The translations under genes and the position numbers were made by a program. A stretch of 64,000 bases of DNA, from the IMG/VR virus record IMGVR_UViG_3300033074_002003; one strand, written 5' to 3'. The stretch is from a virus. Within the stretch, counting starts at the first letter, position 1. Every line of letters starts with the position of its first letter. This document shows, piece after piece, positions 15,913 to 63,308 of the stretch. The notes under the pieces are model-generated. The model was not told the origin of the DNA. It searched no databases and was given only the letters and a program-made list of their open reading frames with translations.

Positions 15913-15923
15913 AAGGGTGACTC

Positions 15924-16580: not shown

Positions 16581-16592
16581 TAGTTATCGAGC

Positions 16593-27357: not shown

Positions 27358-27383
27358 TCTCGACTCTGGATCGTTGCACCGCT

Positions 27384-27420: not shown

Positions 27421-27436
27421 TGTTCTTGTTGGAACG

Positions 27437-29095
27437 ATGAGATACAACTTGATCATGTTCAAATGTCCTCGTTGCGATCGCGAATTCTGTTGGGCTGCCA
27501 AGCTCGAAAAACACATTGTAGCAGAGCATGGACTCGATCCCGAAGCGTTGTACATCGAGACACAGTGTGCTGGGGGAGTACCACAATGCGGGTGCGGGTG
27601 CCTCAGCAAAATCCCGTGGAACGGGTGGAAGCTGGGATTTTCCTCCAAGTTCCTCCGCGGGCACAACGCGTCATCCCAAGGAAATTTCTCCAATCCAGAG
27701 ATTCACGCTGCAGCACAGGCAACCCGTGTGAGCAACATTCGTTCCGGGAAGACGAAAATCTGGAACGCTGGAAAGACGAAAGAGACGGACGAAAGCCTGG
27801 CTCGAGCTTCTATCAAGAAGAGCGCGACAATGCGCGAAGGGTACGCTTCTGGTAGGATCAAAGCGCACTGGCTTGGTAAGACAAAAGAGACGTGCGATGC
27901 GCTCGCGCGCGGGTCTGCTACCAAGAAGCGTAACTTTCTAGAGGGCGTCTCTAAGGTCTGGAATGAGGGTCTTACACGCGAGACGTCAGAAAAGTTAGCT
28001 GGGATTGGCGACAGAATCTCTCACACGCGGGTGACGAATTATGATTCGGCGACGCGATACACGAGAGAAGATGTCACAAAAATAGCGGAAGAAGCGGGAT
28101 TTGAACTGCTATCAAATCCCGATGATTACAGAAACAAGTACCAACTACTTCACGTGAGGTGTCTAGAGAAGGGACACGACTCGCAACGAAATGTGATGAT
28201 GTTGCAAAATACACCGAAATGTCTTATTTGCCACCCGAAAGAATCGTGCGCTCAGCTAGAACTCTCTGCATTTGTCAGGTCGCTCGGCGTCGAGGTGTAC
28301 GAGTCGACGAGACGGGTTATCCCTCCCCGCGAGATCGATGTCTACTGTCCCGCGCACAAGTTTGGAATCGAGTTCAACGGACTGTTCTTCCACACAGACG
28401 CGACGAAGCACCCGCTCTATCACGAAGAGAAGACAGATGCAGCAACCTCTGTGGGTGTCAGACTGTTTCACGTCTTTGAGGACGAGTGGCGCGACAAGCG
28501 ACGGATCGTAGAGTCGATGGTGCGAGCTCGCCTGGGCATCGCGCCGCGGAGAGTCTTCGCTCGCAAGTGTGTCGTGAAGGAAATCACCCCAGAGGTCAGG
28601 CGAGAGTTCTTCGAGAGGACACACATTGATGGTGACGCTAGAGCGACGATCGCGTGGGGATTGTTCTCGGGCGATGAGCTCCTCTCTGTGATCTCACTCA
28701 GAAAACCGATTCGCAAATCTTTGGGTGTCACTGTATTTGAGCTCGCGAGATATTCTAGTGAACTCAACACATCTGTCGTGGGCGGTCTGGGCAAGCTTCT
28801 TGCACAGTGCAAACTCTGGCTCAGGGGTCGCGGCGTCAGAGTGCTGATGACCTACGTTGACAAGCGACACGGTGATGGCCACGGGTACGAGAGGCTCGGA
28901 TTTGCGTGTGTCGGAATCACGGGTTCTCCACGATTCTGGTGGACGGGTGGAGAGGTGGGACCGAACCGCGTCGATAGGCTGACATACAGAGCAGATTCGG
29001 AACGTGGACTCACCGAGAAGCAGGTGGCGGAGGACGCGGGGGTCAATCGGATCTACGGGTGCACGAACAAGGTGTATGAGCTCTCGATCGACTGA
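27437..29095 (+). CDS. Homing-endonuclease-like protein (C2H2 zinc finger, CGCGC motif, NUMOD3-like repeats, Vsr-like nuclease) fused to an extra ~250-aa C-terminal domain of unknown function. The start was chosen at MRYNL, downstream of the terminator.
   Basis: The N-terminus carries CPRCDREF...HIVAEHG and CGCGCLSKIP. Repeats read GKTKIWNAGKTKETDESLA. The nuclease region reads IEFNGLFFHTDATKHP...FHVFEDEW. A C-terminal tail continues to residue 573. Confidence 0.7.
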   Translation: MRYNLIMFKCPRCDREFCWAAKLEKHIVAEHGLDPEALYIETQCAGGVPQCGCGCLSKIPWNGWKLGFSSKFLRGHNASSQGNFSNPEIHAAAQATRVSNIRSGKTKIWNAGKTKETDESLARASIKKSATMREGYASGRIKAHWLGKTKETCDALARGSATKKRNFLEGVSKVWNEGLTRETSEKLAGIGDRISHTRVTNYDSATRYTREDVTKIAEEAGFELLSNPDDYRNKYQLLHVRCLEKGHDSQRNVMMLQNTPKCLICHPKESCAQLELSAFVRSLGVEVYESTRRVIPPREIDVYCPAHKFGIEFNGLFFHTDATKHPLYHEEKTDAATSVGVRLFHVFEDEWRDKRRIVESMVRARLGIAPRRVFARKCVVKEITPEVRREFFERTHIDGDARATIAWGLFSGDELLSVISLRKPIRKSLGVTVFELARYSSELNTSVVGGLGKLLAQCKLWLRGRGVRVLMTYVDKRHGDGHGYERLGFACVGITGSPRFWWTGGEVGPNRVDRLTYRADSERGLTEKQVAEDAGVNRIYGCTNKVYELSID

Positions 29096-47426: not shown

Positions 47427-48674
47427 GTGCGCTTCCTGATTGATTCGCGGTCGCTCGGAACCGCGAAGACGCTGTTGTGTGACGGCGGCAAGCTATCGTG
47501 GGTGGGTTCTGACGAGCCCTCTGACGGCCTGCTTCGCTGGAGGTCGACGGCCGATACTTCTACACGTGATGACCTGAGAACAGCGATGTTACTCTCGGGC
47601 CACGATGTTCCCTGGCAGTTTGACAAGAAGTACATCAACGCGCTGCGCATCACGCTGCCAGACTACGAGTCGCACGACATTCCGTGGCACCTCATCGCCC
47701 CCGCACACGTGATGTCTGCGACGATAAAGTCCATCGTGTCGGGCGTGAAGTCCTGTTGGACTGACATCGATACGACGTTCTACAACAACGTGTTCTCGAC
47801 TCAGACGTCCATGTTCGAGTCGCTTGTGGGACCGACAATCTCGCGCAAGCGCATCGAGAAGTACCTCAAAGAGGACAAGAACCGCTCTACATTCCTTTCT
47901 GGATTCCTGCCCGACGAGGGCGATACGCTTCCGAAGATCACATATCACCGCGTGAAGACCGATAGTCACGGCGGCACAGTGACCGGTCGACTCACTACAG
48001 CGACCGGACCTGACTTCCTGACACTAAACAGGGAATACAGGAATATTCTGAAGTCACGATGGGATAGAGGTACTGTCTGGTACCTCGATTATTCTTCGCT
48101 AGAACCGCGCACGTTCCAAGCTCACATCGGGAGGAAGCTTCCCGAGAACTTTTACTCTGACCTCGCGGAGAATACTCTCGGCGATCGCGGTAGGGTCGCG
48201 GACGCGAAGGCGATGTTTCTCAGAAGATTTTACGGGTCTGGCATCGATTCTCTCCTCGAGCTCGGCGTATCGAGCAGGGAACAGGTCACGAAGTTCGTGA
48301 AGCACGTAGACGAAGACTTTGGCGTCCGTGAGATGTCAAACAGGCTCGTGCGCGAGTTCTCTGAGACTGGGAAAATCAGGAACAGGTACGGACGCGCGGT
48401 GCTGGTCGAGAGGGGCGCGCCACCGCACCTACTGTTCAACAACTGGGTGCAGTCATCGGCGGTTGACGCGGCACTGCTAGGATTCTCGGCGATCACATCA
48501 GCTGTCAAAAGGTCAAACCTCGAGATCGAGCCGCTGTGCGTCATTCACGACGCAATTGTGATAGATGTACACCCCAGATGTCAGAAGTACGTTGAAGTTC
48601 TGAAAAGTGTTGGTGCGCGCATCCCGGGGTTCGAGAACTTTGAATTTGAGATGCACGCGGAAAGAATAACATGA
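47427..48674 (+). CDS. Family A DNA polymerase, polymerase (palm/fingers) domain only. No 3'-5' exonuclease domain is present in this ORF.
   Basis: Motif A is LDYSSLEPR (compare DYSQIELR). A motif B-like element is ADAKAMFLRRFYG (compare RRxAKxxNFGxxYG). Motif C is CVIHDAIVIDV (compare VHDE). Confidence 0.7.
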   Translation: MRFLIDSRSLGTAKTLLCDGGKLSWVGSDEPSDGLLRWRSTADTSTRDDLRTAMLLSGHDVPWQFDKKYINALRITLPDYESHDIPWHLIAPAHVMSATIKSIVSGVKSCWTDIDTTFYNNVFSTQTSMFESLVGPTISRKRIEKYLKEDKNRSTFLSGFLPDEGDTLPKITYHRVKTDSHGGTVTGRLTTATGPDFLTLNREYRNILKSRWDRGTVWYLDYSSLEPRTFQAHIGRKLPENFYSDLAENTLGDRGRVADAKAMFLRRFYGSGIDSLLELGVSSREQVTKFVKHVDEDFGVREMSNRLVREFSETGKIRNRYGRAVLVERGAPPHLLFNNWVQSSAVDAALLGFSAITSAVKRSNLEIEPLCVIHDAIVIDVHPRCQKYVEVLKSVGARIPGFENFEFEMHAERIT

Positions 48675-49546: not shown

Positions 49547-50530
49547 ATGGTAGACATCGAAGCAATCAAGCGTAAGTTGGCACAGCTGAACGGTGAGAAG
49601 GGTACGAGCGAGTTCGGAAAGACGTGGTGGAGGCCCAAGGGAATTGGGACGCACAACATCCGGATCGTGCCCTGGCAGGACAACAAGGGCCAGCCGTTCA
49701 AGGAGATGTGGTACTACAAGAACATCGGCGTGAAGGACGCGCGTGGCTACGGCCCGTTCCCTACGCCCACCCGCGAGCAGTTCAAGCTCAAGGACCCGAT
49801 TCAGGAGCTGATCAATCACCTGCGTGCGGATGAGGACGGCGCGACGGCAAACAAGGCGTTGCTGAAGAAGCTCTACCCGAAGATGTCGGCTATCGTTCCC
49901 ATCATTGTCAGGGGCGAGGAGGAGCTCGGCGTGAGGCTCTGGGCGATTCAGGACCTCAAGGGAGTGTATCAGAACCTCCTTTCGTACTTCGTCAAGGATT
50001 CAGTCCTCGAGGAGACGCACGATTACACTGACGTGAAGAAGGGCTTCGATATCGAGGTTACGATCTTCAAGTCTGATCGAGTGTGGAACGGTAAGCCCGT
50101 AAACGAAATGAAGGTCGAGCTCGGTAGGAAGCTCTGCCCGCTCTCGAAGGATGAGAAGCAGATCGAGAAGTGGATCTCGTCGATCCCCGATCTTTCGAGC
50201 ATCGAACCAGTGCTCGAGTACGATCAGTTGAAGAAGCGCCTCGATGACTGGATGAACTCTAGTGACGACGACGCGAAGGCATCTGCTGATTCGACCGAGG
50301 AGCGCGGGAGCACTTCGGGTGCAGATGACCTCGATGCTCTCACTGAGTCTCTTGGCGCGACGGACGATTCTTCAGCTGAGAAGAAGTCGAAGAAGCCCGT
50401 AGAGAAGGCGGCGGCAGCCGAAGAGGAGAAGCCGGCTCCGAAGCCCGCAAAGCCTGCCGCGAAAAAGAAGTCTGATGAGGTCGAGAAGGGCCTCGATCAG
50501 ATGTTTGAAGACCTCGAGAACGGCAACTGA
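49547..50530 (+). CDS. T4 gp32-like single-stranded DNA-binding protein.
   Basis: AQLNGEKGTSE...HNIRIVPWQDNKGQPF aligns with T4 gp32 AKLNGNKGFSS...AVIRFLPSKNDEQAPF. The C-terminal tail is acidic. Confidence 0.75.
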   Translation: MVDIEAIKRKLAQLNGEKGTSEFGKTWWRPKGIGTHNIRIVPWQDNKGQPFKEMWYYKNIGVKDARGYGPFPTPTREQFKLKDPIQELINHLRADEDGATANKALLKKLYPKMSAIVPIIVRGEEELGVRLWAIQDLKGVYQNLLSYFVKDSVLEETHDYTDVKKGFDIEVTIFKSDRVWNGKPVNEMKVELGRKLCPLSKDEKQIEKWISSIPDLSSIEPVLEYDQLKKRLDDWMNSSDDDAKASADSTEERGSTSGADDLDALTESLGATDDSSAEKKSKKPVEKAAAAEEEKPAPKPAKPAAKKKSDEVEKGLDQMFEDLENGN

Positions 50531-50550: not shown

Positions 50551-51744
50551 ATGGCTGCTCGAAAGAAAAACGAGGGGTCATCGCCTGTCGCCACCGCAAC
50601 CGCGGTGGCGACCGCGTATGACGACTTTGCTGACGAACTCATCGTGTCTCTCAACAAAGAGCACGGTTCTCGAATCGCGTACAATCTAGGTACAGACACC
50701 TCTCCTACACACGTGAAGAGGTGGATCTCGACGGGTTCAGTCTTCCTAGACTACATCATCTCTAACAGGAAGGGTGGAGGCATTCCCGAGGGACGAATCA
50801 TCGAGATTTACGGCCCGCCCTCGACTGGAAAGTCGCACATCGCGACACAGATCGCTCGCTCGACGCAACAGCTCGGTGGCATCGTTGTGTACATCGACAC
50901 AGAGACAGCGACATCACCCGAGAACCTCGGGATGCTCGGCGTCGACGTCTCCAAGAGGTTCATCTACGTTGACGAACACTGCACAGAAGAGGTGTTCAAG
51001 GTCATCGAGTCGACGATCCTGAAGGCGAAGGCGCGCATGAAGGATGTGCCCATCACTATCATCTGGGACTCGGTCGCGGCGACGTCACCGAAAGCCGAGC
51101 TGGACGGAGAGTACGACAAGGACACCATCGGTCTCCAGGCACGCGTCATCTCAAAGGGCATGAGAAAAATCACGGGAATCATATCAGAGAATGATGTGAC
51201 GCTCGTGTGTCTCAATCAGACGCGCACGAAGGTCGGCGTGATGTATGGCGATCCCATGACAACACCAGGTGGCATGGCGATTCCATATCACGCGTCGGTA
51301 CGTCTCAAGATTACGGGCGGACAACACGTGAAGAAGAACGACGGGTCGGTCATCGGGATTGACATCAACGTTACAGCAGTGAAGAACAAGGTCGCACCTC
51401 CATTCAGGCAGGCTTCATTTGCGATTCACTTCGGACGCGGAATTGTCGAGCACGAGGCGCTCTTTGACACGCTTCGAGAGTCGTGTGACAAGGAGAAATT
51501 TGTCATCGACGGGAAGCAGATTTCTATCGAAGGCATGGGATCGTGGAAGGCACTTGTGGTAACAGACGTTGCAACCTCCAAAGAGGTCGTCAACAGGAAG
51601 TTCTACAAGGCCGATTTCATTGAGGTCATCAACGAGCCAGAGACAAAGAAGTACGTCGAAGATCTCATCGAAGCAGTCCTCACCAAGAAGCTCGGCGCGA
51701 AAGTAGAGGATGCCAGCGCCAAAGAAGAGGCGGTGACGTCGTGA
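50551..51744 (+). CDS. UvsX/RecA-family recombinase.
   Basis: GGIPEGRIIEIYGPPSTGKSH matches RecA [21 protein letters not shown] (Walker A). The length is about 397 aa. Confidence 0.9.
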   Translation: MAARKKNEGSSPVATATAVATAYDDFADELIVSLNKEHGSRIAYNLGTDTSPTHVKRWISTGSVFLDYIISNRKGGGIPEGRIIEIYGPPSTGKSHIATQIARSTQQLGGIVVYIDTETATSPENLGMLGVDVSKRFIYVDEHCTEEVFKVIESTILKAKARMKDVPITIIWDSVAATSPKAELDGEYDKDTIGLQARVISKGMRKITGIISENDVTLVCLNQTRTKVGVMYGDPMTTPGGMAIPYHASVRLKITGGQHVKKNDGSVIGIDINVTAVKNKVAPPFRQASFAIHFGRGIVEHEALFDTLRESCDKEKFVIDGKQISIEGMGSWKALVVTDVATSKEVVNRKFYKADFIEVINEPETKKYVEDLIEAVLTKKLGAKVEDASAKEEAVTS

Positions 51745-52178
51745 CATTCTATCTCAAGAAGACGCACGAGGCCGCGATCGAACCCACGACGCGCATAGGA
51801 TCCGACGTGGGTCACGATCTCTACACGGTAGAGAGTGTGAAGCTCTACCAGGGCGTCGTCACGAAGGTCAGGACCGGTCTCACACAGGTGAATGCGGAGG
51901 GACACTCACCTTCATTCTTGAAGATAGAAGGCAGGTCTAGCCTCGCAGCCCGCGGGATTTTTCCAGTCGGTGGGATCATAGATCCGAGTTATCGCGGTGA
52001 AATCATCGCGCTGTTCATGAACATGTCCGGCGAGACGGTCGAATTCCCGAAGGGAGTAAAATTCGCGCAGCTCATTCCATATCGCGTCCACGCAGTCGGA
52101 GACGGGATCAAAATTGTGTCTGACGCTCCGACTCCGACTGTTCGCGGCGCGGGAGGATTTGGGTCCACCAATGAGTGA
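51741..52178 (+). CDS. dut: dUTP pyrophosphatase.
   Basis: Motif 2 is GRSSLAARGI, motif 3 is GIIDPSYRGEI and motif 5 is RGAGGFGSTNE. Confidence 0.9.
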   Translation: MTFYLKKTHEAAIEPTTRIGSDVGHDLYTVESVKLYQGVVTKVRTGLTQVNAEGHSPSFLKIEGRSSLAARGIFPVGGIIDPSYRGEIIALFMNMSGETVEFPKGVKFAQLIPYRVHAVGDGIKIVSDAPTPTVRGAGGFGSTNE

Positions 52179-52500
52179 AGAGAAGCAAACAGACGAACTC
52201 TTCACGTCCGGTATCGGAGATCCCACTCGTGGGTGGGGTGCGACGCGCGTCGAAGATCTCGTACCACACGAGCACACCGAGCCCGTGACATTTTCAGCTA
52301 GTGCAAAGGAATGCAACACGGCACTCGACTGGTACTCTAGACACTGCGTAGAGAAACACAAGATCGAATTTCCTTACGCTGGTGCTTGTGGCGGAGCTCT
52401 TTCGTGGATCTTTACTTCGACGTCTATCGGACAGTGCGTCGGTGTTGTGTGCGGATTTTGCCAAGAGAAGTTTAACGCGACCGACTATGACGAGTGGTGA
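52171..52500 (+). CDS. Cys-rich hypothetical protein. The start was chosen at the internal Met overlapping the dut stop.
   Basis: An ORF from MSEEKQ... to 52500 containing several Cys pairs. Confidence 0.35.
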   Translation: MSEEKQTDELFTSGIGDPTRGWGATRVEDLVPHEHTEPVTFSASAKECNTALDWYSRHCVEKHKIEFPYAGACGGALSWIFTSTSIGQCVGVVCGFCQEKFNATDYDEW

Positions 52501-52829
52501 TCTACATGGCGTCTTCGAAAAAGCTAGTGCGAGCCGCATTCAGACAGTCTGTTTTCGACCGCGATCGACACAAGTGTAAGATGTGTGGTGCTGTCCCAGA
52601 AGACGGCGACGCCGGCCTCGATGCACATCACATTACAGATCGCAATGAGATGCCGAACGGAGGCTACGTCGCCGCGAACGGTATATCGCTGTGCAGACAG
52701 TGTCACAAAGCCGCAGAGGAGTTTCACTCAACGGGCACCGCCGCCCCGGGCTTCTCTCCGGAAGATCTGTACGCAGCTATCGGTTCCTCACACACAGAGG
52801 CAGTAAGCGAGTCACAGAGACTGCGATAG
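52494..52829 (+). CDS. HNH endonuclease.
   Basis: CKMCGAV...LDAHHI.......NG...N...LCRQCH is a canonical HNH motif. Confidence 0.75.
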   Translation: MVIYMASSKKLVRAAFRQSVFDRDRHKCKMCGAVPEDGDAGLDAHHITDRNEMPNGGYVAANGISLCRQCHKAAEEFHSTGTAAPGFSPEDLYAAIGSSHTEAVSESQRLR

Positions 52830-53034: not shown

Positions 53035-54045
53035 ATGAAGCAACCGATTCTCATCGTTGATGCGTATAACACATTTACGAGATCGTTTTGTGCATTTCCC
53101 GCGATGGACCCACGTACGGGCGAACACGTTGGAGGTATCGCAGGATTCATAAAGACACTGTCGCGAATCGTCGATGAGATACAACCTTCGCGCGTATTTG
53201 TCATCTGGGAGGGCGGTGGATCTTCGCGTCGCAGATCTCTTTACTCTTCTTACAAAGCCAACAGAAAACCCGGAAAACTGAATAGATTCTACGAAGACGA
53301 CCTCCCAGACACGGACGAGAACAAGCTCACGCAGGTGAAGCACCTCGTTCACACGCTCAAGATTTTGCCCGTGTGTCAGCTGTACGTGAGCGACGTTGAA
53401 GCAGATGATGTCATCGCGTACCTCGTGGGTCGCCATTTCAGGGACTACGACAAGGTGATCCTGTCAACAGACAAGGACATGTACCAACTTCTCGACGAGA
53501 AGACGCGCGTCTATGATCTCAACAAGAAAGCGTACGTGACGCACGAGACGGTTCTGAAGGCGTACAACATCCATCCCAGAAATTTTGCCCTTGCGAAGAC
53601 TCTTTGCGGAGACGGTTCAGACAACATCCCGGGAGTCAAAGGATGCGGTTTCAAGACTGTAGCAAAGAGATTTCCGTTCTTGCTTCAGGACAAGGATGTT
53701 CTCCTGCAAGACGTCATAGACTTCGCTTCCACACGTGTCGATGAAGCGGCAGTATATCGCAACACAGCAAGTTCTGCGGCTGACTTGAAAACTTACTGGA
53801 GACTGATTTACCTTGACGGTTCAATGATACCAGCTCAGAGCATTGAGCGCCTCGAAGTTATCATAAATTCGTATGTGCCCGAGCTTGACAAGCTGGAACT
53901 CTTGAAGAGATCTGTGAAGTTTGGAATCGTGAATCACATTGATATCACGGCAGTGACGAATAGCATGAAGTTTCTCTTCTTCGCCCACGAGGCAGAAGAA
54001 GAAGGAACAGACACCGACGAAAAGGAAGAAGAGCCAAATGAGTGA
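53035..54045 (+). CDS. Flap endonuclease / 5'-3' exonuclease (T4 RNase H or T5 D15-like).
   Basis: The N-terminal nuclease motif is ILIVDAYN. The H3TH motif is LCGDGSDNIPGVKG. ILSTDKDMYQL is also present. Confidence 0.9.
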   Translation: MKQPILIVDAYNTFTRSFCAFPAMDPRTGEHVGGIAGFIKTLSRIVDEIQPSRVFVIWEGGGSSRRRSLYSSYKANRKPGKLNRFYEDDLPDTDENKLTQVKHLVHTLKILPVCQLYVSDVEADDVIAYLVGRHFRDYDKVILSTDKDMYQLLDEKTRVYDLNKKAYVTHETVLKAYNIHPRNFALAKTLCGDGSDNIPGVKGCGFKTVAKRFPFLLQDKDVLLQDVIDFASTRVDEAAVYRNTASSAADLKTYWRLIYLDGSMIPAQSIERLEVIINSYVPELDKLELLKRSVKFGIVNHIDITAVTNSMKFLFFAHEAEEEGTDTDEKEEEPNE

Positions 54046-55441
54046 TGAGTCGACGCCAAGCCTAGCGAAGTTCGGTACATCGTTTCAGGAGAAGACAATG
54101 CAGGCTCTTCTCACCGATCGGAGGTGGGCCGAGCAGATGATGGAAGTGTTCGATCCCGAGTACTTCGATCAGAAATACCTTCAGTACCTCTCTGACAAGG
54201 TTTTTGCGTACGCTCGAAAGTATAAGGACTTTCCGACCCTTCAACTGCTCGTCACGATCATCTCCGACGACCTGAGACAGGCGGGCACAGACGCGGCCCT
54301 TCGCGCGCAGATCGTCGATTACCTGAAGAGGATCAGGGCGAAACCCGAACAGAACGACCTCCCGTTCGTAAAAGAGAAGTCGCTCGAGTTCTGCAAGCGC
54401 CAGGCTTTGAAGGCAGCTCTCGAAAAGTCCGTCGATCTCATCAACACCGAGAGGTACGACTCTGTCGTTGAGGTGATCAAGAAAGCCGTGCTTGCGGGTG
54501 CTAGCACGTCAATTGGCCACGATTTTGACGACGATCGTGAAGCGAGATTCATTCGTACTGCTCGCAACCCGCTCTCAACCGGCCTCCCACACCTCGACGC
54601 GAAAGACGTGATGAACGGCGGTCTCGGCGCCGGCGAGCTCGGCGTTGTGATGGCACCGACAGGCATCGGCAAGTCACACTTCCTCACATTCCTCGGCGCA
54701 AACGCGATGAGAGCGAAGAAGTGCGTGCTTCACTACACGTTCGAGCTCTCCGAGACGAATGTCGGTATCAGGTACGACTCGAACCTGTGTGATATCGTGT
54801 CAAACGAGATCATTGACAGCAAAGACGCCGTAGTGAAGCACTACGCCGAAAACAAGTATGGGAAGCTCATCATCAAAGAGTTCCCGATGCACTACGCGAC
54901 CGTGCAGACGCTTAGGGCACACTACGAGAAGGTGCTGATCACGAAGGGCGTCACGCCTGACCTCATCATCATAGACTACGCTGACATCATGAGGTCCTCG
55001 CGGAAGTACGATGACCTTCGTCACGAGCTGAAACTGATCTACGAAGAGTTGCGTTCATGGGCGTCAGAGATCAAAATCCCGATCTGGACTGCCTCACAGA
55101 CGAACAGAGCGGCGACAGAGAGTGACGTTATCGGCCTCGAATCGATCAGCGAGGCATACGGCAAGGCGATGACATCCGATGTAATCATCTCTCTCTCAAG
55201 GAAGAGAATAGAGAAGGCTGGTGGTTGGGGGCGACTCTTTGTGGCGAAGAACAGAGCAGGTCGCGACGGTCTCCTTTATTCGATCAAGATCGATACCGCG
55301 AAGTCAAACTTCTCGATCGCTGCTGAGGAATCGCAGGAAAGAGTGACAGTCGAGGAGGAGAACGAAATTAAGCGCGCCATCCGTGACAAGATGAAGGAGC
55401 TCGAGGCAAAAGGCGAGCTCAAGGGCCCAGACGACGCGTGA
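54038..55441 (+). CDS. DnaB-like (SF4) replicative DNA helicase.
   Basis: Walker A is GELGVVMAPTGIGKSH. A Walker B / H2-like element is DLIIIDYADIM. A C-terminal RecA-like fold is present. Confidence 0.85.
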   Translation: MSDESTPSLAKFGTSFQEKTMQALLTDRRWAEQMMEVFDPEYFDQKYLQYLSDKVFAYARKYKDFPTLQLLVTIISDDLRQAGTDAALRAQIVDYLKRIRAKPEQNDLPFVKEKSLEFCKRQALKAALEKSVDLINTERYDSVVEVIKKAVLAGASTSIGHDFDDDREARFIRTARNPLSTGLPHLDAKDVMNGGLGAGELGVVMAPTGIGKSHFLTFLGANAMRAKKCVLHYTFELSETNVGIRYDSNLCDIVSNEIIDSKDAVVKHYAENKYGKLIIKEFPMHYATVQTLRAHYEKVLITKGVTPDLIIIDYADIMRSSRKYDDLRHELKLIYEELRSWASEIKIPIWTASQTNRAATESDVIGLESISEAYGKAMTSDVIISLSRKRIEKAGGWGRLFVAKNRAGRDGLLYSIKIDTAKSNFSIAAEESQERVTVEEENEIKRAIRDKMKELEAKGELKGPDDA

Positions 55442-55490: not shown

Positions 55491-58400
55491 ATGACACAAG
55501 CACAGCAATCACAGGCAAAGAGTTTCAGCAGTGACGAAGTTGTAGAGAGAACGGCAGAGTATTTCGGCGGCGATAAGATGGCAGGAGCTGTATTCTTGAA
55601 GTACGCTCTGCCTGCAGATGACGGCGGTTTCTTGGAACTGTCGCCGCCTGACATGCACGCTAGACTCGCTAGAGAATTGGCTCGGATAGAGAACAGATAC
55701 TCTAACCCAATGTCCGAGGAAGAAATTCTAGGGTTGCTCAGCAGGCCCTCGCACAGGAAGCTGGGCATGGGTCCCATCATCCCGCAGGGCTCGCCGATGG
55801 CGGGCATCGGAAATACGAAGCAGTTCCAGAGCATCTCAAATTGCTTCGTGATCGACTCTCCTTACGACTCTTTCGGGGGAATCTTCCATACTGACGAGGA
55901 AGAGGCCGAGATCATGAAGAGGCGCGGGGGTGTCGGATTTGACGTCTCGACGCTTCGCCCGAAAGATGTGAAGACCTCGAACGCTGCTGGCACGACAGAC
56001 GGCATCGGTGTGTTCCTCGAGCGCTACAGCGCGACATGTCGCGGCACCGCACAGAACGGACGCCGCGGCGCGCTCATGCTCACGATCTCAATCAGACACC
56101 CCGAGATCGAGACGTTCATCAACATCAAGCGTGACCTGAAGAAGGTGACAGGCGCAAACATCTCAATCCGTGTCACAGACGACTTCATGGTTGCCGTCGA
56201 GAACGATGAATACTTCACGCTGCAGTGGCCGGTAGACGTGCCGCTCTCAGAGGCGAAGATCACTCGAGAAGTCAGAGCTCGTGACATCTGGGACCAGATC
56301 ATCGATGCGGCCTGGAACAGCGCCGAGCCCGGTGTTCTCTTCTGGGATACCGTGAAGAGAAATTCTCCGGCTGACGCATACGCCTCGGTTGGATTTAGTT
56401 CAGTCTCGACAAATCCATGTGTTGTAGGAGACACGTTGATCGCTGTTGCTGACGGTAGAAATGCTGTGTCAATTAGACAATTGGCAGAAGAGGGTCGCGA
56501 CGTACCTGTGTATTCTACTGATATTGCTACAGGAAAGGTTGAGATCAAGTGGGGAAGATCTCCTAGACTGACAAAAGTTCAAGCAGAGGTTTGGAAACTG
56601 ACACTTGATGATGGCACGTGTGTCATTGCGACACCTGATCACAAGATTTTGCTTAGAAATTTGACGTATGTGAATTTGCAGGATCTCAAGTCAGGTGACT
56701 CAATTTTCCCATTTTCGACGTTCGACTCTAATGGATATCGTCAGGTATGCAATACTGGCGTACCCATGACGGGTGGTGCAAGGCGGAACAGACGTCAATA
56801 TCGACTGATTCACGAATTTTTTAACGGGAGCACTGATTCAAAGTTGTTTGCGATTCATCATTGTGATTTTGATTCTAGAAATGACAGAATCGAAAACTTG
56901 AAAGTGATGACGCACGATGAACATCGAGAACTACATTCGCGCCTAATGATTGGTGATAATAATCCGTATCACAGGATGTCATCTGAATGGAAGCTAAAGT
57001 TTGCAAAACATTCTGGCGAATCTAATGGTAGATTTTCGGGCCACACTAACGAGCAGCTTCTAGAAGCTGGGCGTCGTGTATTCGAAGAAAATGGAAAGAT
57101 AACACGAGCTCTTTGGAAAGAATATGCCAAGAAGCACGCGTTCCCGCAATTTCTTGCAAATCAATTTAGATTTGGAAGTTGGCAAAATTTTGCCAACCAA
57201 GTCTCGAGCAATCACAAAGTTGTTTCTGTTGAAAAAATCGGTACAGAAGACGTTTACAACATCACCGTAGATGACAATCACAACTACCACGTCATCACTT
57301 CTTTGGACGAAAATGGTGTTGTCTCTTCTGGTATTTGTGTCAAAAATTGTGGGGAAATTCCTCTTTCGAGTGGGGACTCGTGCCGGCTACTCGTAATCGA
57401 TCTCACACATTTCGTCGTTTCGCCATTTACCCCCGAGGCTCACTTTGATTTCACTGAGTTTGAAAGGGTCGTCGGAAAGGCCCAGCGACTCATGGACGAT
57501 ATCGTTGACCTCGAGGTCGAAGCAGTCGACAGGATCATCGAGAAGATCGAGTCAGATCCAGAACCCGAGTACATCAAGGCACGCGAGCTCTCACTCTGGC
57601 GTCGAATCAGGGACACTGGGTTGAGAGGACGCAGGACCGGATTCGGTGTCACCGCGCTGGGCGACGCCCTCGCTCTTCTTGACCTGAAGTACGGACAGTT
57701 CGATGCGATCTCGATGACCGATCGAATCTATCGTAGCTTGGCACTGGGCGCCTACAGGTCGAGCGTCGACCTCGCGGAAGAGCGGGGCGCGTTCCCGGCA
57801 TACGATCCGAAGCTCGAGGCCGGTCACCCGTTCTTGAGTCGCATCCGCGCCGAAGATCCAGCTCTCGCAGAGAAGATGGATCGCGTCGGGCGTCGAAACA
57901 TCGCGCTCACGACAACTGCGCCGGTCGGTTCTACCTCGATGCTCACGCAGACTACAAGCGGTATCGAGCCGCTGTTCAAGCCGTTCTACGTCCGGAAAAA
58001 GAAGGTCAGCGGCGCGACGGAACCGAACGCAGAGCTGATCGTCGACGAGATGGGCGATAGGTGGCAGAAGTTCAACGTCTACCATCACTACCTCAAAGAG
58101 TGGATGGACATCACTGGGAACTCTAACATTGACGAGTCTCCGTATGCAGGTGCCTCGGCAAACGAAATCGACTGGCTTGGGTCTGTCGCGATGCAGGCCG
58201 CTGCACAGAAGTGGGTGTGTCACAGCATCTCAAAGACGTGCAACCTGCCGAAAGACGTGAGCCATGATGTTGTGTCTGACGTCTACATGAATGCGTGGAA
58301 GACGGGTTGCAAGGGCTTCACGATCTACAGGGACGAATCTAGAGACGGCGTGCTCGTGTCTGAGGACGCTGTGATGTTCGACGTGAAGAAGCGCACAGAT

Positions 58401-59141
58401 GGCGTTCCCACACGTGAGCTCGAGCGACAGGTCGAGATCGGCGAGCGCTTCGCGAAGTACATGCCGTCCGGGTATGTCTCATTCCTGCAACAGGTGAGAG
58501 ACGCGATCGCCGCGCGCAAAAACCCATCGCTCGGGGCCGTCGTAGATCGCGTAGTCGAGACGAAGCTGCACTCAGAGAAGAGGCCCAAGGAACTTCCTTG
58601 CGAAATTCACCGTGTCAACGTGAGGGCGAAAGACGACAGCGGCGACATCACGACACAGACGTACATCGTGCTTCTTGGCTTGTTGAACGGGAAGCCCTAT
58701 GAGATCTTCTGCGGCCTCTCGGAACACGTCGACGTTCCGAAGAAGTGCAAGAATGGCGTGCTCGTGAAGAATGGCAAGAAGGCCGGCGTCGCGACGTACA
58801 ACCTCAGGATCCCGATCGGAGACGATGACGACGCGATCGTGCTGAAGGACGTCGTGAATCTCTTTGAGAACGCCACATACGGTGCTTTCACGAGGATCCT
58901 GTCCCTCGCGCTGCGCCACGAGATTCCGCTGCAATTTGTTGTGGAACAGCTGCAGAAGGACAAGTACTCAGACATGCAGAGTTTTTCTCGTGTCATTGCG
59001 AGGGTCCTGAAGCACCACATTCTAGACGGTACGCCCGTCTCGGGTGAGAAGAAGTGTGATAGCTGCGGGGCCGAGGGGACGCTTGTCTACGAGGAGAAGT
59101 GTACCAAGTGCACCGCGTGCGGGAACGGGAAGTGCGGATAG
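55491..59141 (+). CDS. nrdJ: Class II (adenosylcobalamin-type, NrdJ-like) ribonucleotide reductase interrupted by an intein immediately before the catalytic NPCGE cysteine.
   Basis: ISNCFV, GGVGFDVSTLRP and a C-terminal zinc ribbon (CDSCGAEG...CTKCTACGNGKCG) are present. The extein junction reads STNP|C...N|CGEIPL. Confidence 0.85.
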   Translation: MTQAQQSQAKSFSSDEVVERTAEYFGGDKMAGAVFLKYALPADDGGFLELSPPDMHARLARELARIENRYSNPMSEEEILGLLSRPSHRKLGMGPIIPQGSPMAGIGNTKQFQSISNCFVIDSPYDSFGGIFHTDEEEAEIMKRRGGVGFDVSTLRPKDVKTSNAAGTTDGIGVFLERYSATCRGTAQNGRRGALMLTISIRHPEIETFINIKRDLKKVTGANISIRVTDDFMVAVENDEYFTLQWPVDVPLSEAKITREVRARDIWDQIIDAAWNSAEPGVLFWDTVKRNSPADAYASVGFSSVSTNPCVVGDTLIAVADGRNAVSIRQLAEEGRDVPVYSTDIATGKVEIKWGRSPRLTKVQAEVWKLTLDDGTCVIATPDHKILLRNLTYVNLQDLKSGDSIFPFSTFDSNGYRQVCNTGVPMTGGARRNRRQYRLIHEFFNGSTDSKLFAIHHCDFDSRNDRIENLKVMTHDEHRELHSRLMIGDNNPYHRMSSEWKLKFAKHSGESNGRFSGHTNEQLLEAGRRVFEENGKITRALWKEYAKKHAFPQFLANQFRFGSWQNFANQVSSNHKVVSVEKIGTEDVYNITVDDNHNYHVITSLDENGVVSSGICVKNCGEIPLSSGDSCRLLVIDLTHFVVSPFTPEAHFDFTEFERVVGKAQRLMDDIVDLEVEAVDRIIEKIESDPEPEYIKARELSLWRRIRDTGLRGRRTGFGVTALGDALALLDLKYGQFDAISMTDRIYRSLALGAYRSSVDLAEERGAFPAYDPKLEAGHPFLSRIRAEDPALAEKMDRVGRRNIALTTTAPVGSTSMLTQTTSGIEPLFKPFYVRKKKVSGATEPNAELIVDEMGDRWQKFNVYHHYLKEWMDITGNSNIDESPYAGASANEIDWLGSVAMQAAAQKWVCHSISKTCNLPKDVSHDVVSDVYMNAWKTGCKGFTIYRDESRDGVLVSEDAVMFDVKKRTDGVPTRELERQVEIGERFAKYMPSGYVSFLQQVRDAIAARKNPSLGAVVDRVVETKLHSEKRPKELPCEIHRVNVRAKDDSGDITTQTYIVLLGLLNGKPYEIFCGLSEHVDVPKKCKNGVLVKNGKKAGVATYNLRIPIGDDDDAIVLKDVVNLFENATYGAFTRILSLALRHEIPLQFVVEQLQKDKYSDMQSFSRVIARVLKHHILDGTPVSGEKKCDSCGAEGTLVYEEKCTKCTACGNGKCG
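56418..57347 (+). mobile_element. Intein of 310 aa with an embedded HNH homing-endonuclease domain inside nrdJ.
   Basis: It starts with CVVGDTLIAV (block A) and ends VYNITVDDNHNYHV...NGVVSSGICVKN followed by C (blocks F/G). HNH reads HHCDFDSRNDRIENL...HDEH. The intein is about 42% GC versus about 58% in the flanking extein. Confidence 0.8.
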
Positions 59142-59200
59142 TTCTCTGTAAAAGAGAGCAAAATCTCGGTATAGTCTCACGAAAGAAAGGCACGCTAGAC

Positions 59201-60187
59201 ATGGGACACAGCGCTCGAGTCATCGCTGACTCTCGGACTCAGTGGGGTGAAAGACTAATCTCGCTTGAGGTAAAACTGCCCCGCGTAGTTTTGGCCGAAT
59301 TCAATACTCATCGTGTGTTCTCACGCAACTCTGCGTCATCTCGTGCCATCCCAGTCGAGAAGATGTTGAGGATGGTCAAGGAAGATCCCTACATCCCGAC
59401 ACACTGGGGGCAGAACCAGAAGGGCATGCAGGCAGACGTAGAGCTCGATGAGGCGTACCGGGCGTGGGCCATTTGCGAGTGGATGCGCAATCGAGATGAA
59501 GCGATACGCGGCGCAAACGAGCTGCTCAACCTCGGCGTTCACAAGCAGATCACGAATCGCCTCCTAGAACCGTTCATGTGGCACACTGTCGTCGTGACTG
59601 CCACGGAATGGAGCAACTGGACGCATCTCCGCGACAACAAGATGGCGCACCCAGAGATCCAAGCGCTCGCGGTGTGCATCTCGGACGCGATTCGCGCCTC
59701 GTCTCCGAGATCGCTTCGAGACGGTGAATGGCACCTACCGTTTGTGTCGGAGGACGAGGTCAGCGAGAGAAATGACGTCAACTTCTGGAAGAAGGTTTCG
59801 TCAGGACGGTGTGCGAGGGTGAGTTACCTGACACACGACGGCGTGCGTGACCCGCAGGCAGACGTAGACCTCCACGACAGGTTGCTGACTGCGGGTCACA
59901 TGAGCCCATTTGAGCACGTCGCTAGACCCATGGGACCGATTGAGCGCGAGTGTACGAAGAGGTTCAACGTCTTCTTCGAAGACGGTACGGTGCTAAATCA
60001 GGTCACGCTTCCCACGCGCGAGTTCTGTGACAGTTACGGTCTTGCAACCCCGCGCACGTGGGAGGACTGGACCGGGGTGAAGATCAAGCGCGTGCAGGAG
60101 ACACACTTCTGCGGCAACTTTGACGGGTTCATTCAGTACAGAAAAGAGATCCCTTTCGAGTGGGACATCATGGGAGAGAAATCGTGA
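59201..60187 (+). CDS. ThyX-like (flavin-dependent thymidylate synthase family) protein with a non-canonical signature (THR instead of RHR). The start was chosen at the internal Met after the nrdJ stop.
   Basis: EFNTHRVFSRNSASSRA aligns with the ThyX motif EFxRHRxxSxNxxSxR except that the first Arg is replaced by Thr. Confidence 0.55.
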   Translation: MGHSARVIADSRTQWGERLISLEVKLPRVVLAEFNTHRVFSRNSASSRAIPVEKMLRMVKEDPYIPTHWGQNQKGMQADVELDEAYRAWAICEWMRNRDEAIRGANELLNLGVHKQITNRLLEPFMWHTVVVTATEWSNWTHLRDNKMAHPEIQALAVCISDAIRASSPRSLRDGEWHLPFVSEDEVSERNDVNFWKKVSSGRCARVSYLTHDGVRDPQADVDLHDRLLTAGHMSPFEHVARPMGPIERECTKRFNVFFEDGTVLNQVTLPTREFCDSYGLATPRTWEDWTGVKIKRVQETHFCGNFDGFIQYRKEIPFEWDIMGEKS

Positions 60188-60768
60188 AAGCGCTGATCTC
60201 AATTGAGGGAGGAGATTCAACAGGGAAGGCGACGCAGGCTATGTTTCTCGAGGCGCGCCTGCAGTCAATGGGCGTCTCGGCGATTCGCTTCGAGATCCCT
60301 GCGCACGGACCGATCACGCGCCCGCTCATCTACTTCATGCTCTACGTGAACCTAGCCGGGAGGTTTCCGCGCGTCTTCCACACGTTGCAGTTCATCAACA
60401 AATTCCTGTTCCAGTTCTTCGTTCTGAGGTTGGTCTCGCTCTTCTACGACTGTGTCATCCTCGATCGCTGGCACGGTTCTTACTGGGTGTATGGCATCGA
60501 ATCCGGTCTCGATCGGACGAGCACGCTCATGAAGATGAGCTCGTTGCTAAAAGAGCCGGATCTGATCTTTTGCCTCTCGGGACCCCGTCACGTCGTTGAG
60601 AGGCGAGACGAGTACGAGCGCAACGATGACATGCAGTCTCGCGTCGCTCGTTCGTATGTCGAATGGGCTCGTTCGAAGAACAACTGTCACATCGTGAACT
60701 CAGATCGCGACAAGTTGTCTGTACATCAAGATATTTGGAACGTAGTTTCAGAGAAGACAAACCTTTGA
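60160..60768 (+). CDS. tmk: Thymidylate (dNMP) kinase. The true start is probably the GTG at 60184, which overlaps the ThyX-like stop.
   Basis: The P-loop is ISIEGGDSTGKAT. A DRW motif reads ILDRWHGSYWVYG. The length is about 195 aa. Confidence 0.65.
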   Translation: MGHHGREIVKALISIEGGDSTGKATQAMFLEARLQSMGVSAIRFEIPAHGPITRPLIYFMLYVNLAGRFPRVFHTLQFINKFLFQFFVLRLVSLFYDCVILDRWHGSYWVYGIESGLDRTSTLMKMSSLLKEPDLIFCLSGPRHVVERRDEYERNDDMQSRVARSYVEWARSKNNCHIVNSDRDKLSVHQDIWNVVSEKTNL

Positions 60769-60777: not shown

Positions 60778-61014
60778 ATGGCAAGCGAAGAACTTCAGGT
60801 GAGTGATAGCGTGTGGCAGCGAGTCGTGCAGATCGTTCAGGAGGGCATGCTCACGATGACGGATGTGTCTGACGCGCTGAGGCTCGTCAGGTTGCAGGAA
60901 GTCGATGGGAAGCTCGAGCTCTCAGATTCGTACAAGGGATACGTCGCGACCCTTCACGACAAGCTCGTCGAAGAGGGAAAGAGACTGAGCGCATCGAGGA
61001 CGTCTGATGACTGA
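60778..61014 (+). CDS. Small hypothetical protein.
   Basis: A 78-aa ORF with a gagggtgaa RBS. Confidence 0.4.
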   Translation: MASEELQVSDSVWQRVVQIVQEGMLTMTDVSDALRLVRLQEVDGKLELSDSYKGYVATLHDKLVEEGKRLSASRTSDD

Positions 61015-61459
61015 CAGTGAGTTCAAGGGCGTGCTACGAAAGTGGTCAGACTTTGATCCGAATGATGGTCTGGAAGACGTGCGCACGAGGAGGGGTGATT
61101 TCCTTCTAACGATGTTTGAACAGCAGTCACAGTTCATGCAGCTCCTCGAAGAGAAGCGCTCGTTTCCGAAGTGGCCCGTTGACCTCACGTCGAAGGTGGG
61201 ACAGCAAGCGTGTCGCGATGCATCACTGGGTGGCATCGAAGAGTGGTTCGAGGCGCTGAAACACCTCAAAAATTGGAAATCGCACCGAGCGACAGAGGTG
61301 AAAGACGTCGATCGAGCAGAGTTCCTCGAGGAGATGTCTGACGCGTTGCACTACTTCGTAGAGGTAATCCTGCTCGCAGACATCTCACCGGAAGAGCTCT
61401 ACGACGCATATATGAAGAAAGGTGCCACAAACGTGGCCCGAATCAACGGAGGATACTGA
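61007..61459 (+). CDS. MazG-like all-alpha NTP pyrophosphohydrolase (dCTPase-like).
   Basis: The EExxE/EExxD helical motifs are GIEEWFEALKHLK and EFLEEMSDALHYFVEV. Confidence 0.45.
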   Translation: MTDSEFKGVLRKWSDFDPNDGLEDVRTRRGDFLLTMFEQQSQFMQLLEEKRSFPKWPVDLTSKVGQQACRDASLGGIEEWFEALKHLKNWKSHRATEVKDVDRAEFLEEMSDALHYFVEVILLADISPEELYDAYMKKGATNVARINGGY

Positions 61460-62199: not shown

Positions 62200-62232
62200 C
62201 TGCATGCACTCTGTAATATGAGTGCATGCAGT
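62200..62232 (+). promoter_or_regulatory. A 12-bp inverted repeat (CTGCATGCACTC - 8 nt - GAGTGCATGCAG) whose right arm contains the ATG of the nucleotidyltransferase gene.
   Basis: Read directly from the sequence. This is the same arrangement as the hairpin at 7227..7260. Confidence 0.45.
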
Positions 62233-63308
62233 TTGACGTTTCAGAGCGGACGATTTACCTCGCAGTTCACGGCAGTACCGCGTACGGCACGAATACACCC
62301 GAGTCAGATCTTGATATCAAGGGTGTGTGTGTTCCACCCGCGTGTTACTACACGGGTTTTTCGTATGTCTTCGAGCAGGAAGAGCGTATGGTGTCGAAAG
62401 GTCACTCAGAGGACAGGGTCACCTATTCCGTGGAGAAGTTCTTCTCGCTCGCAGCGGATTGCAATCCCAACATCATCGAGGTGCTGTTCGTTGACGATTC
62501 AGACGTCCTGAAGTGCAATGACCTCGGGAAGCTGATGAGGGAAAATCGCGATCTCTTCCTCTCGAAGAGAGCGAAGCACACATTCAGTGGGTACGCACAC
62601 GCGCAGCTTCACAGGATCCAGACGCATCGCAGGTGGTTGCTCGACGCCTCGAAGTACGAGTCAACGCTTCCAAAGCGCAGCGATTTCGACCTGCCCGAAT
62701 TCGAGTCCAAGAAGGACGCGAACCAGATTCTCACCGCCCTCGCTCTTGTCCAGAAGAGGCTCGACGAGTGGAACGTTGACTTCAGAGAATTTGACAACGC
62801 CGAGAGGATTCGCCTACAGAACAAGCTCGCCCAATTTTTCGTGGAGGCTGGCGTCCTCGGCGATGACCTCTGGTCTCGAGCGGCCCAGGCTGTTTTCGGC
62901 GTGGACGAGAACCTGATCCATCGCCTACAACGCGAACGCGCGTACGCGAATCAGTGCTCTGACTGGGAGAAGTACGCTAACTGGAAGCGTTCGCGCAATC
63001 CGAAGCGCGCTGCTCTCGAGGCGAAGTTTGGGTACGACACGAAGCACGGCGGCCATTTGATCCGTCTCATGAGGATGTGCAAGGAAATCCTCTCAGGACA
63101 GGGCGTCATCGTGAAGCGACCCGATGCCAAGGAGATCCTCGCGATCAGGAACGGCTTGTGGTCGTATGAGAAGCTCATCGAGGAGTCTGAGAAGCTCGAG
63201 GCAGAGTGCAACGCGCTCTACGATACGTCAGCGCTTCCGCACAAGCCGAACGTTGCGCGACTTAATGAGTTGTGTTCGCAGATCGTGACACTTGGGATAG
63301 TGAGGTAG
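62226..63308 (+). CDS. Pol-beta-superfamily nucleotidyltransferase of unknown specificity.
   Basis: VHGSTAYGTNTPESDLDIKGV is a GS-x9-DxD NTase motif. The remaining ~300 aa form a helical C-terminal domain. Confidence 0.65.
   Translation: MQFDVSERTIYLAVHGSTAYGTNTPESDLDIKGVCVPPACYYTGFSYVFEQEERMVSKGHSEDRVTYSVEKFFSLAADCNPNIIEVLFVDDSDVLKCNDLGKLMRENRDLFLSKRAKHTFSGYAHAQLHRIQTHRRWLLDASKYESTLPKRSDFDLPEFESKKDANQILTALALVQKRLDEWNVDFREFDNAERIRLQNKLAQFFVEAGVLGDDLWSRAAQAVFGVDENLIHRLQRERAYANQCSDWEKYANWKRSRNPKRAALEAKFGYDTKHGGHLIRLMRMCKEILSGQGVIVKRPDAKEILAIRNGLWSYEKLIEESEKLEAECNALYDTSALPHKPNVARLNELCSQIVTLGIVR

Follow-up and report, generated by a model that had tools for sequence, protein, structure and literature searches.

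The 64,000-nucleotide stretch of viral DNA analysed here (IMG/VR record IMGVR_UViG_3300033074_002003, hereafter the window) encodes a family A DNA polymerase of only 415 amino acids, short PolA. By its predicted Pol I-type palm, fingers and thumb fold this protein is a family A polymerase, and its sequence points to a polymerase domain standing alone: palm, fingers and a short thumb would make up the enzyme, with neither a 3'-5' exonuclease domain, active or vestigial, nor a 5' nuclease domain. We propose that short PolA is the phage's own equivalent of Pol I, dismantled into separate genes and acting as an accessory enzyme beside a separate main replicase, and we give this reading as a whole a probability of about one half. 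It draws on the conservation of the polymerase active site across a large family of equally short proteins, on the results of searches for a 3'-5' exonuclease, on a Pol I-type 5'-3' nuclease encoded in the same cassette and on the co-occurrence of a second, larger polymerase in related phages.

Gene boundaries and family

The open reading frame (ORF) of short PolA begins with a GTG at 47427, and it cannot be extended N-terminally because an in-frame stop lies two codons before this start (the preceding codons read N-Y-stop-D). No earlier start than this GTG is possible, and homologous proteins start 1-3 residues ahead of a common conserved N-terminus, F-x-I-D...G. The 993-amino-acid (aa) gene upstream stops 38 nucleotides before short PolA, in a different frame, and the stop codon of short PolA overlaps the ATG of the following gene (ATGA), which encodes an HD-domain protein. 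The original prediction, made from the sequence alone, had described here a family A ORF of about 415 aa with motifs A, B and C, too short to include a 3'-5' exonuclease domain. The ORF is indeed present, the three motifs were all located in its translation at the places given, and the short length is no artefact, given the upstream stop, the neighbour in another frame and the short homologues. The start, then regarded as uncertain, is settled by the position of the GTG and by the conserved N-terminus. A frameshift or a lost N-terminal extension, which might have concealed an exonuclease domain, is excluded by the upstream in-frame stop and by the family-wide short length. An intron or homing endonuclease splitting the gene, another possibility raised at that stage, is excluded as well: the reading frame is uninterrupted, its homologues are colinear with it, and the only Rfam matches in the window are three tRNAs.

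Short length is a trait of the family. Seventeen homologues retrieved by a word-indexed search, on contigs of up to 242 kb, measure 346-434 aa, and the same range holds for 164 family proteins (median 404). An exhaustive profile search returned 7,813 proteins at E <= 0.001, ordinary family A polymerases included, and 612 representatives of 50% identity clusters at E <= 1e-30; the best 150 of its matches are all 354-430 aa long and aligned end to end. Stop-to-stop ORFs span 326-475 codons over a set of 85 related loci, made up of the window, four metagenome loci and 80 from IMG/VR; the four shorter than 390 are cut by the end of the locus. Taken together, these sequences suggest a polymerase-only architecture of ancient origin, shared throughout at least 612 clusters. 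A literature search found no description of the short PolA family, a tblastn search of short PolA against 50,697 phage records gave no match at 1e-5, and the source databases label family members 'hypothetical protein' or leave them unnamed. We regard the family as an unrecognised subfamily of a known kind, and not as something categorically new.

The assignment to family A rests on several lines of evidence. Short PolA matches the Pfam model DNA_pol_A (PF00476) over profile positions 58-349 of 381 with 32.9 bits, just below the gathering score of 34.3, and it matches PHROG 17 ('DNA polymerase') at 5.6e-12. Most of its homologues have a precomputed PF00476 match, and a profile of 18 homologues matches Taq, Klenow, Bst, Pol nu and Pol theta in the PDB, with a best E-value of 3.5e-12 for Taq Pol I. 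Hence, short PolA is a divergent member of family A, and not a non-member. The PDB matches span profile positions ~123 to 385; for the N-terminal ~90 residues no sequence counterpart was matched, the Pol I matches starting at about residue 123. An AlphaFold2 model based on the alignment of the 18 homologues reached a predicted local distance difference test score (pLDDT) of 90.6 and a predicted template modelling score of 0.89, with no disordered segment, and it predicts a short thumb without a processivity insert. Foldseek searches with this model placed bacterial Pol I large fragments at the top of the PDB matches and, among viral models, returned only longer PolAs, at 10-19% identity.

Conservation of the active site

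Klenow equivalences were taken from a HMMER alignment to Taq, and residue conservation was counted over 268 distinct family members (coordinates and aligned motifs are given in Table 1). R188, in the TGR motif, corresponds to Klenow R668 (Taq R573), which contacts the primer terminus, and is Arg in 264 relatives. In motif A, the catalytic Asp (D221, Klenow D705) is kept in 267 relatives and the steric-gate Glu (E226, Klenow E710) in all 268. Motif B fits the pattern R...K...[FYL]...YG, with the Arg four or five residues ahead of the Lys; K261 (Klenow K758) is invariant, Y269 (Klenow Y766) is Tyr in 234 relatives and Phe in 33, and G270 (Klenow G767) is present in 267. Invariance extends to Q342 (Klenow Q849), a minor-groove contact, and to the metal-binding Asp of motif C (D375, Klenow D882), which is preceded by H374 (Klenow H881; His in 259).

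Two positions are hallmarks of the family. The first, equivalent to Klenow F762 ('B3'), is L265 in short PolA and Leu (154), Ile (101) or Met (12) among the relatives, but never Phe or Tyr; Leu or Ile at B3 is a variant already recorded in marine phage PolAs (PMC10201439). The second is the residue that follows the Asp of motif C, which is Ala in 243 relatives, Gly in 13, Asn in six and Glu in a single one. In short PolA this residue is A376, at the position of Klenow E883; the metal-binding Asp is thus retained and the accessory Glu of the usual H-D-E is replaced by Ala. The catalytic positions are near-invariant among the 268 members although distant members share only 25-30% identity, and this is the pattern that selection on an active site leaves. 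On this sequence evidence, short PolA is probably active as a polymerase.

Search for an exonuclease

Essentially all plausible ORFs of the window were searched against Pfam, and many against PHROGs, and no DnaQ/RNase_T or DNA_pol_A_exo1 domain was found among them. Such a domain is likewise missing from the precomputed Pfam lists for the 10 kb on both sides of the window and for the neighbourhoods of three relatives. Within ~45 kb around the gene in relatives there is no DnaQ or Pol A exonuclease domain, and no 3'-5' exonuclease gene adjoins short PolA in the 85 related loci. The protein itself was searched for traces of such a domain. Its residues 1-175 include 22 acidic residues, none of them invariant and only three at least 60% conserved as acidic, and this absence of conserved acidic motifs argues that there is no DEDD-type exonuclease site. 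With only ~120 residues preceding the matched region, no vestigial or active N-terminal exonuclease domain was recognised, a domain that all 19 described subfamilies of family A have.

The sole exonuclease found is a stand-alone Pol I-type 5'-3' exonuclease or flap endonuclease (FEN), encoded 4.4 kb downstream and kept in 65 of the 85 loci. Its best NCBIfam match is to DNA polymerase I (positions 2-200 of 889, 3.9e-41), which beats the models for stand-alone 5'-3' exonucleases and Xni. Since the only exonuclease is a nuclease of the Pol I N-terminal type, the gene can be called 'split' only in the sense that a Pol I has been dismantled into a FEN and a polymerase. The original prediction had offered two alternatives. 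A specialised, exonuclease-deficient polymerase gains support from what appears to be a complete and conserved polymerase-only protein, whereas a split polA with its 3'-5' exonuclease encoded elsewhere finds none in the window, the 10-kb flanks or the 85 related loci.

Gene cassette and phage lineage

Short PolA occupies a fixed place in the genomes that carry it. The conserved order comprises structural genes for a ~1400-aa, a ~1000-aa, a 97-aa baseplate-wedge and a ~1000-aa protein, followed by the cassette of short PolA, HD protein, gp32-like single-strand DNA-binding protein (SSB), RecA, (dUTPase), FEN, DnaB and ribonucleotide reductase (RNR). Over the 85 loci the HD protein is kept in 75, SSB in 71, RecA in 74, dUTPase in 28, DnaB in 63 and RNR in 53. 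The 993-aa gene directly upstream has no Pfam or PHROG match. The early description of the upstream genes as structural is borne out by a 97-aa baseplate-wedge homologue and the ~1000-aa proteins, which are kept there in 62-78 of the 85 loci.

Directly downstream, the HD protein was considered as a trans-acting exonuclease. Its metal-binding residues are degenerate in the family (n=60), with H65 kept in 47, H96 in 59, D97 in 40 and D186 in 24 members, and the set is complete in a minority only. NCBIfam shows a faint resemblance to the HD domains of YhaM and of MobH relaxases, and a PDB profile search found no sequence relative. The empty PDB search and the mostly incomplete catalytic residues leave the exonuclease role unsupported; as far as its sequence indicates, the HD protein would be a poor candidate for a proofreading nuclease and could be a structural partner. 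In some marine relatives a 252-aa gene follows the polymerase, and it has no PDB match.

The exact short PolA sequence and the last complete protein of the window occur together on a 305,889-bp ENA metagenome contig, and a member of the short PolA 90% cluster occurs on a 329,329-bp JGI contig. Upstream of the window lie genes for a T4-type portal, a prohead protease and a gp23 capsid protein, and the window itself contains two ~1000-aa sheath paralogues, a gp19-type tube gene and baseplate genes. Hence, the window comes from a T4-like jumbo phage. By helicase and sheath, the cultured phages nearest to it are Microcystis phage Mel-JY01 and the Flavobacterium phages 'immuto', together with an uncultured 484-kb phage. 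The lineage to which the cassette belongs is large and consists of T4-like jumbo phages, most of them aquatic.

Polymerases of related phages

Relatives were walked downstream in IMG/VR, with a ClpP alignment and then with a Pol III alpha alignment. They carry a Pol III alpha of ~1200 aa with PHP, alpha, finger and HhH domains (Pfam), which scores 575-578 bits on the NCBIfam DnaE models. It was found within the same locus as short PolA in 14 cases, and at least 20 IMG/VR contigs carry both genes, with Pol III alpha roughly 13-25 kb downstream; among these are contigs of 278 kb (L044/L217), 213 kb (L050/L219) and 92 kb (L091/L239). In L103/L197, L105/L198 and L155/L195 Pol III alpha lies farther than 10 kb from ClpP. 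In the 278-kb relative, homologues of the genes at the end of the readable stretch of our phage are located just upstream of Pol III alpha, in a different order. The N-terminal histidines and acidic residues of the PHP domain are invariant in 11 aligned sequences. DnaE enzymes with intact PHP sites leave room for intrinsic proofreading by the replicase. Genes for Fpg, HhH-GPD glycosylases, ThyA and a DHH/DHHA1 protein surround Pol III alpha in the relatives, and the Fpg and HhH-GPD glycosylases lie between it and the cassette, a location that fits a repair-patch polymerase. Neither clamp, clamp loader, primase nor DnaQ was seen within 10 kb of the relatives' Pol III alpha. Copies of this gene were recorded at positions 14172-17750 of locus L102 and in 78 further IMG/VR loci (L179-L257), and the L239 copy is interrupted by an insertion of ~1.5 kb, possibly an intein.

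More distant phages combine the cassette with other polymerases. WWT39333.1 of Mel-JY01 (hypothetical, 408 aa) and gp001 of immuto (441 aa, 'DNA polymerase family A') are homologous to short PolA and located at the same position (hhalign probability 98% and E 2.5e-13 for the former, E 2e-5 for the latter); both have Y-D-A in motif C and a His replacing the steric-gate Glu. The other ~400-aa neighbour in Mel-JY01 is unrelated to short PolA. The Mel-JY01 genome encodes a T4/cyanophage-type PolB and a clamp loader, and immuto a canonical 777-aa PolA with exonuclease and polymerase domains. A search with the Mel-JY01 PolB returned only cyanomyovirus-type PolBs, none of them on the fingerprint contigs. 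The cassette thus stays constant while the large polymerase varies, which fits an accessory role for short PolA.

Comparison with known systems

The 2023 reclassification of family A into 19 subfamilies (PMC10201439) holds that all phage PolAs seem to retain 3'-5' exonuclease activity, and that PolAs structurally require an exonuclease domain, even an inactive one. The exceptions it lists are S-SBP1-like T7-type enzymes and the staphylococcal CCPol.

The closest structural likeness of short PolA is to bacterial Pol I large fragments (Klenow, Klentaq, Bst), which share with it the TGR motif, the D...E.R of motif A, the K....YG of motif B, the Q849 equivalent and the H-D of motif C, at an identity of only 12-15%. 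Like Taq, short PolA is predicted from its sequence to be without proofreading activity, but it would lack the whole ~200-residue 3'-5' exonuclease(-like) domain that Taq keeps in vestigial form. It differs further in having H-D-A instead of H-D-E, Leu or Ile at the F762 position, a shorter predicted thumb and ~90 N-terminal residues unrelated by sequence. In bacterial Pol I the 5' nuclease is part of the protein, whereas here a Pol I-type 5' nuclease is encoded by a separate gene of the same cassette. Pol theta and Pol nu, on the other hand, are eukaryotic enzymes of 600+ residues that retain an inactive exonuclease-like domain and characteristic inserts.

The S-SBP1-like split PolA of cyanopodoviruses (Czernecki et al. 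2023, PMC10201439) is likewise a phage product reduced to the polymerase domain. There a frameshift of recent date has made the exonuclease an adjacent gene, whose product is predicted to bind the polymerase product again (PMC10201439). Short PolA has no adjacent exonuclease gene in the 85 loci, its neighbours are the 993-aa structural gene and the HD protein, and its polymerase-only state is family-wide. Nor is it T7-like, with Leu or Ile at B3 instead of Tyr and its best matches among bacterial Pol I enzymes. CCPol, from staphylococcal SCC elements, is described in PMC10201439 as a family A enzyme in which most of the exonuclease domain is likewise missing, with no complementary exonuclease gene in its vicinity; its stability is proposed to come from another source. 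By the same description three helices of that domain remain, the enzyme has priming activity, and its binding partners are the small beta-barrel protein MP and the Cch2 helicase. Short PolA is set apart from CCPol, as there described, by its HD-domain neighbour, its DnaB-type helicase and an N-terminus with no exonuclease remnant detectable by sequence. The family therefore seems to fit neither exception, because it has no adjacent exonuclease gene, no detectable remnant and a polymerase-only state that appears ancient and family-wide.

The immuto gp001 and Mel-JY01 WWT39333.1 proteins are the only relatives found in cultured phages, and they are too divergent for tblastn at 1e-5, so that profile comparison was needed. 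They resemble the core family in length and in their location after baseplate genes and before SSB, RecA, FEN and DnaB, and differ from it in being accompanied by a long PolA (immuto) or by PolB and a clamp loader (Mel-JY01) instead of Pol III alpha. An analogy with the split polymerase of Rhodothermus phage RM378 was dropped: its genes p092 and p024 are of family B and match the Mel-JY01 PolB, and not the short PolA family.

Proposed role and alternative explanations

In the scheme we favour, short PolA would be a template-dependent, non-proofreading family A polymerase and not the replicase. It would fill gaps and extend primers, and the separately encoded Pol I-type FEN, its proposed partner, would remove RNA primers. 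Okazaki fragments would be matured in this way, and the pair would also act in recombination-dependent synthesis and in repair patches. Bulk synthesis would be left to another, larger polymerase, which in the marine relatives would be the DnaE-type Pol III alpha with its intact-looking PHP domain. For the phage of the window, this role is suggested by analogy with its relatives.

Several observations weigh against this scheme. No second polymerase was found in 84 kb of the ~306-kb genome (a stretch that starts 10 kb before the window and ends 25 kb past the gene), and the window's 553-, 1070- and 1421-aa proteins give no polymerase signal in Pfam, PHROGs or PDB. Identity between the window's subclade and the relatives with Pol III alpha is only ~30%, and just 20 of the 40 relatives with enough sequence have that gene within 10 kb of ClpP. 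DNA ligase, primase and clamp genes were not seen near short PolA, and its place at the head of an SSB-RecA-helicase block would equally suit a replicase. Finally, a motif C without the usual Glu may mean that activity is low or altered. Mutation of Klenow E883 cuts kcat 26-fold, according to the summary in PMC3241644, and because of this effect short PolA may be slower than a canonical Pol I, without necessarily being inactive.

Some of these points lead to the alternative that short PolA is the main replicative polymerase, acting with DnaB and the gp32-like SSB as T7 gp5 or the SPO1 PolA do, with proofreading either absent or provided in trans. As the first gene of a block with SSB, RecA, FEN, DnaB and RNR, very strongly conserved and without any other polymerase in the 84 kb covered, short PolA would be well suited to this part. 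Yet a full-length DnaE-type Pol III alpha is also encoded on at least 20 related contigs, a PolB or a long PolA is found in distant relatives, and there would be no precedent for a genome of ~306 kb copied by a replicase without an exonuclease. The predicted short thumb, with no processivity insert, and the H-D-A of motif C, which would suggest a slower enzyme on the strength of the PMC3241644 summary, also argue against a replicase, and we consider this explanation unlikely, if not strongly so.

Plainly unlikely, in our estimate, is a self-sufficient minimal PolA in which the exonuclease domain has been replaced by the ~90-residue N-terminal mini-domain, by the HD-fold protein or by both. Such an enzyme would be more than a repair polymerase: it would belong to a jumbo-phage replisome with two polymerases, Pol III alpha and short PolA, as an integral part, perhaps extending or making lagging-strand primers in the manner of CCPol-MP.

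Short PolA might also be a more specialised enzyme: a primase-polymerase with a small partner like CCPol-MP, a translesion polymerase or, by analogy with DpoZ and DatZ, a polymerase for modified nucleotides that works with the HD protein as phosphohydrolase. The translationally coupled HD neighbour in 75 of the 85 loci would suit such a function, as would the unusual H-D-A of motif C, the Leu or Ile at B3 and the wealth of nucleotide metabolism genes in the window (two dUTPase types, ThyX, Tmk and RNR). In the account given by PMC10201439, CCPol, the other known PolA in which the exonuclease domain is largely missing, primes together with a partner, and no primase was seen in the regions read. 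The steric-gate Glu and the dNTP-binding residues of the O-helix are, on the other hand, canonical and invariant, and the HD residues are degenerate in most members. The DpoZ model (NF038380, NCBIfam) scores 24.2 bits against a cut-off of 500, the window contains no PurZ-like gene, and no base-modification pathway is linked to the gene. A specialised enzyme of this kind thus seems quite unlikely.

We judge it improbable that short PolA is one half of a split, proofreading PolA to which a distant 3'-5' exonuclease docks, as in the S-SBP1-like T7-type phages. The known split is recent and has its exonuclease gene adjacent, whereas here the polymerase-only state appears ancient and universal in at least 612 clusters, and neither the window and its flanks nor, in relatives, the ~45 kb surrounding the gene showed a DnaQ or Pol A exonuclease domain. 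Such an arrangement would have a rationale in the proposed need of family A for an exonuclease domain for stability, and a precedent in the one phage group that encodes it separately (PMC10201439). The exonuclease searches covered a minor part of the ~306-kb genome. Possible partners are the DHH/DHHA1 phosphoesterase found near Pol III alpha in 38 relatives and the HD neighbour, with its faint similarity to the nuclease-type HD domains of YhaM and MobH, but the catalytic residues of the latter are mostly incomplete, the last Asp being kept in 24 of 60. A catalytically dead polymerase fold with a structural or regulatory role, which the lost Glu of motif C and the further alterations of the Mel-JY01 and immuto homologues (Y-D-A; His for the steric-gate Glu) might suggest, is very improbable indeed, with both metal-binding Asp, the O-helix Lys and Tyr, R188, Q342 and H374 conserved at 96-100% in a family of 25-30% identity.

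Other features of the window

The coordinates of short PolA, its motifs, its cassette and further genes are collected in Table 1. In the RNR large subunit (1216 aa) an intein with an HNH homing endonuclease interrupts the protein (Intein_splicing at about residues 318-600, HNH_3 at 438-478), and the orthologues of relatives, at 814-860 aa, are without it. The ThyX-like protein of the nucleotide-metabolism set is unusually long (362 aa) and has a weak Thy1 match. The two tail-sheath paralogues are adjacent and, at ~1000 aa, far longer than typical sheaths, matching known sheaths in their C-terminal parts only. Five endonuclease-type ORFs are scattered along the window, two of them TnsA-like, two homing-endonuclease/HNH-like inside the tail module and one HNH between dUTPase and FEN, which suggests that the window is heavily colonised by mobile nuclease genes. 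To the RNA-repair genes of the window can be added a second RNA ligase and a PNKP-like kinase/phosphatase just past it (positions 11085-13592 of locus L008). A patatin-like phospholipase gene lies between the structural and RNA-repair genes, and two conserved genes of 553 and 1070 aa follow the capsid gene.

Table 1. Positions of short PolA, its predicted motifs, neighbouring genes and other features in the window.
Feature	Residues	Position	Strand	Remarks
Short PolA	1-415	47427-48674	+	GTG start; polymerase domain only
N-terminal ~90 residues		47427..47700	+	three short strands plus helices (predicted), pLDDT 76-93
TGR motif	186-188	47982..47990	+	aligned to ...TATGRLSS... of Taq
Motif A, LDYSSLEPR	220-228	48084-48110	+	aligned to LDYSQIELR of Taq
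Motif B (O-helix), RVADAKAMFLRRFYG	256-270	48192-48236	+	aligned to RRAAKTINFGVLYG
QSSAVD	342-347	48450..48467	+	aligned to VQGTAAD
Motif C, VIHDAIV	372-378	48540-48560	+	aligned to QVHDELV
Last gene of tail/baseplate block, 993 aa		44407..47388	+	directly upstream of short PolA in 78/85 loci
HD-domain protein, 204 aa		48671..49285	+	Pfam HD 1.1e-08; directly after polymerase in 75/85 loci
T4 gp32-like SSB		49547..50530	+	PHROG 1192 and 224; PF08804 gp32 in orthologues
RecA-type recombinase		50551..51744	+	Pfam RecA 3.8e-64
Stand-alone 5'-3' exonuclease/FEN		53035..54045	+	Pfam 5_3_exonuc_N 3.7e-31
DnaB-type replicative helicase		54038..55441	+	PHROG 19 4.6e-66; Pfam DnaB_C
RNR large subunit		55491-59141	+	contains intein
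Nucleotide-metabolism set		51741-52178, 59099-60187, 60160-60768, 61007-61459	+	trimeric dUTPase, ThyX-like protein, thymidylate kinase, dimeric-dUTPase/MazG-like protein
tRNA cluster		8616-8851	+	Leu(caa), Trp(cca), Arg(tct)
Tail-sheath paralogues		17848-20868, 20913-23963	+
Endonuclease-type ORFs		3-527, 13681-14664, 25608-26771, 27374-29095, 52494-52829	+, -, -, +, +
RNA-repair genes		9070-10071, 11742-12548, 62226-63308		RNA ligase with PHA02142 OB domain, Thg1-like tRNA-His guanylyltransferase, RlaP nucleotidyltransferase
Patatin-like phospholipase		7249-8118	+	Pfam 2e-33
Conserved proteins, 553 and 1070 aa		680-2341, 2407-5619	+	no match in Pfam, PHROGs or PDB

Implications

A large, widespread and seemingly ancient family of PolAs without any exonuclease domain runs against the generalisation that phage PolAs retain 3'-5' exonuclease activity and that the fold requires an exonuclease domain (PMC10201439). 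If active, its members would be the smallest natural Pol I-type polymerases, at about 400 residues, and naturally exonuclease-free, which would give them practical interest as enzymes. More generally, the family points to a bacterial-style division of labour in jumbo phages, in which a DnaE-type replicase would be accompanied by a Pol I encoded as separate polymerase and flap-nuclease genes.

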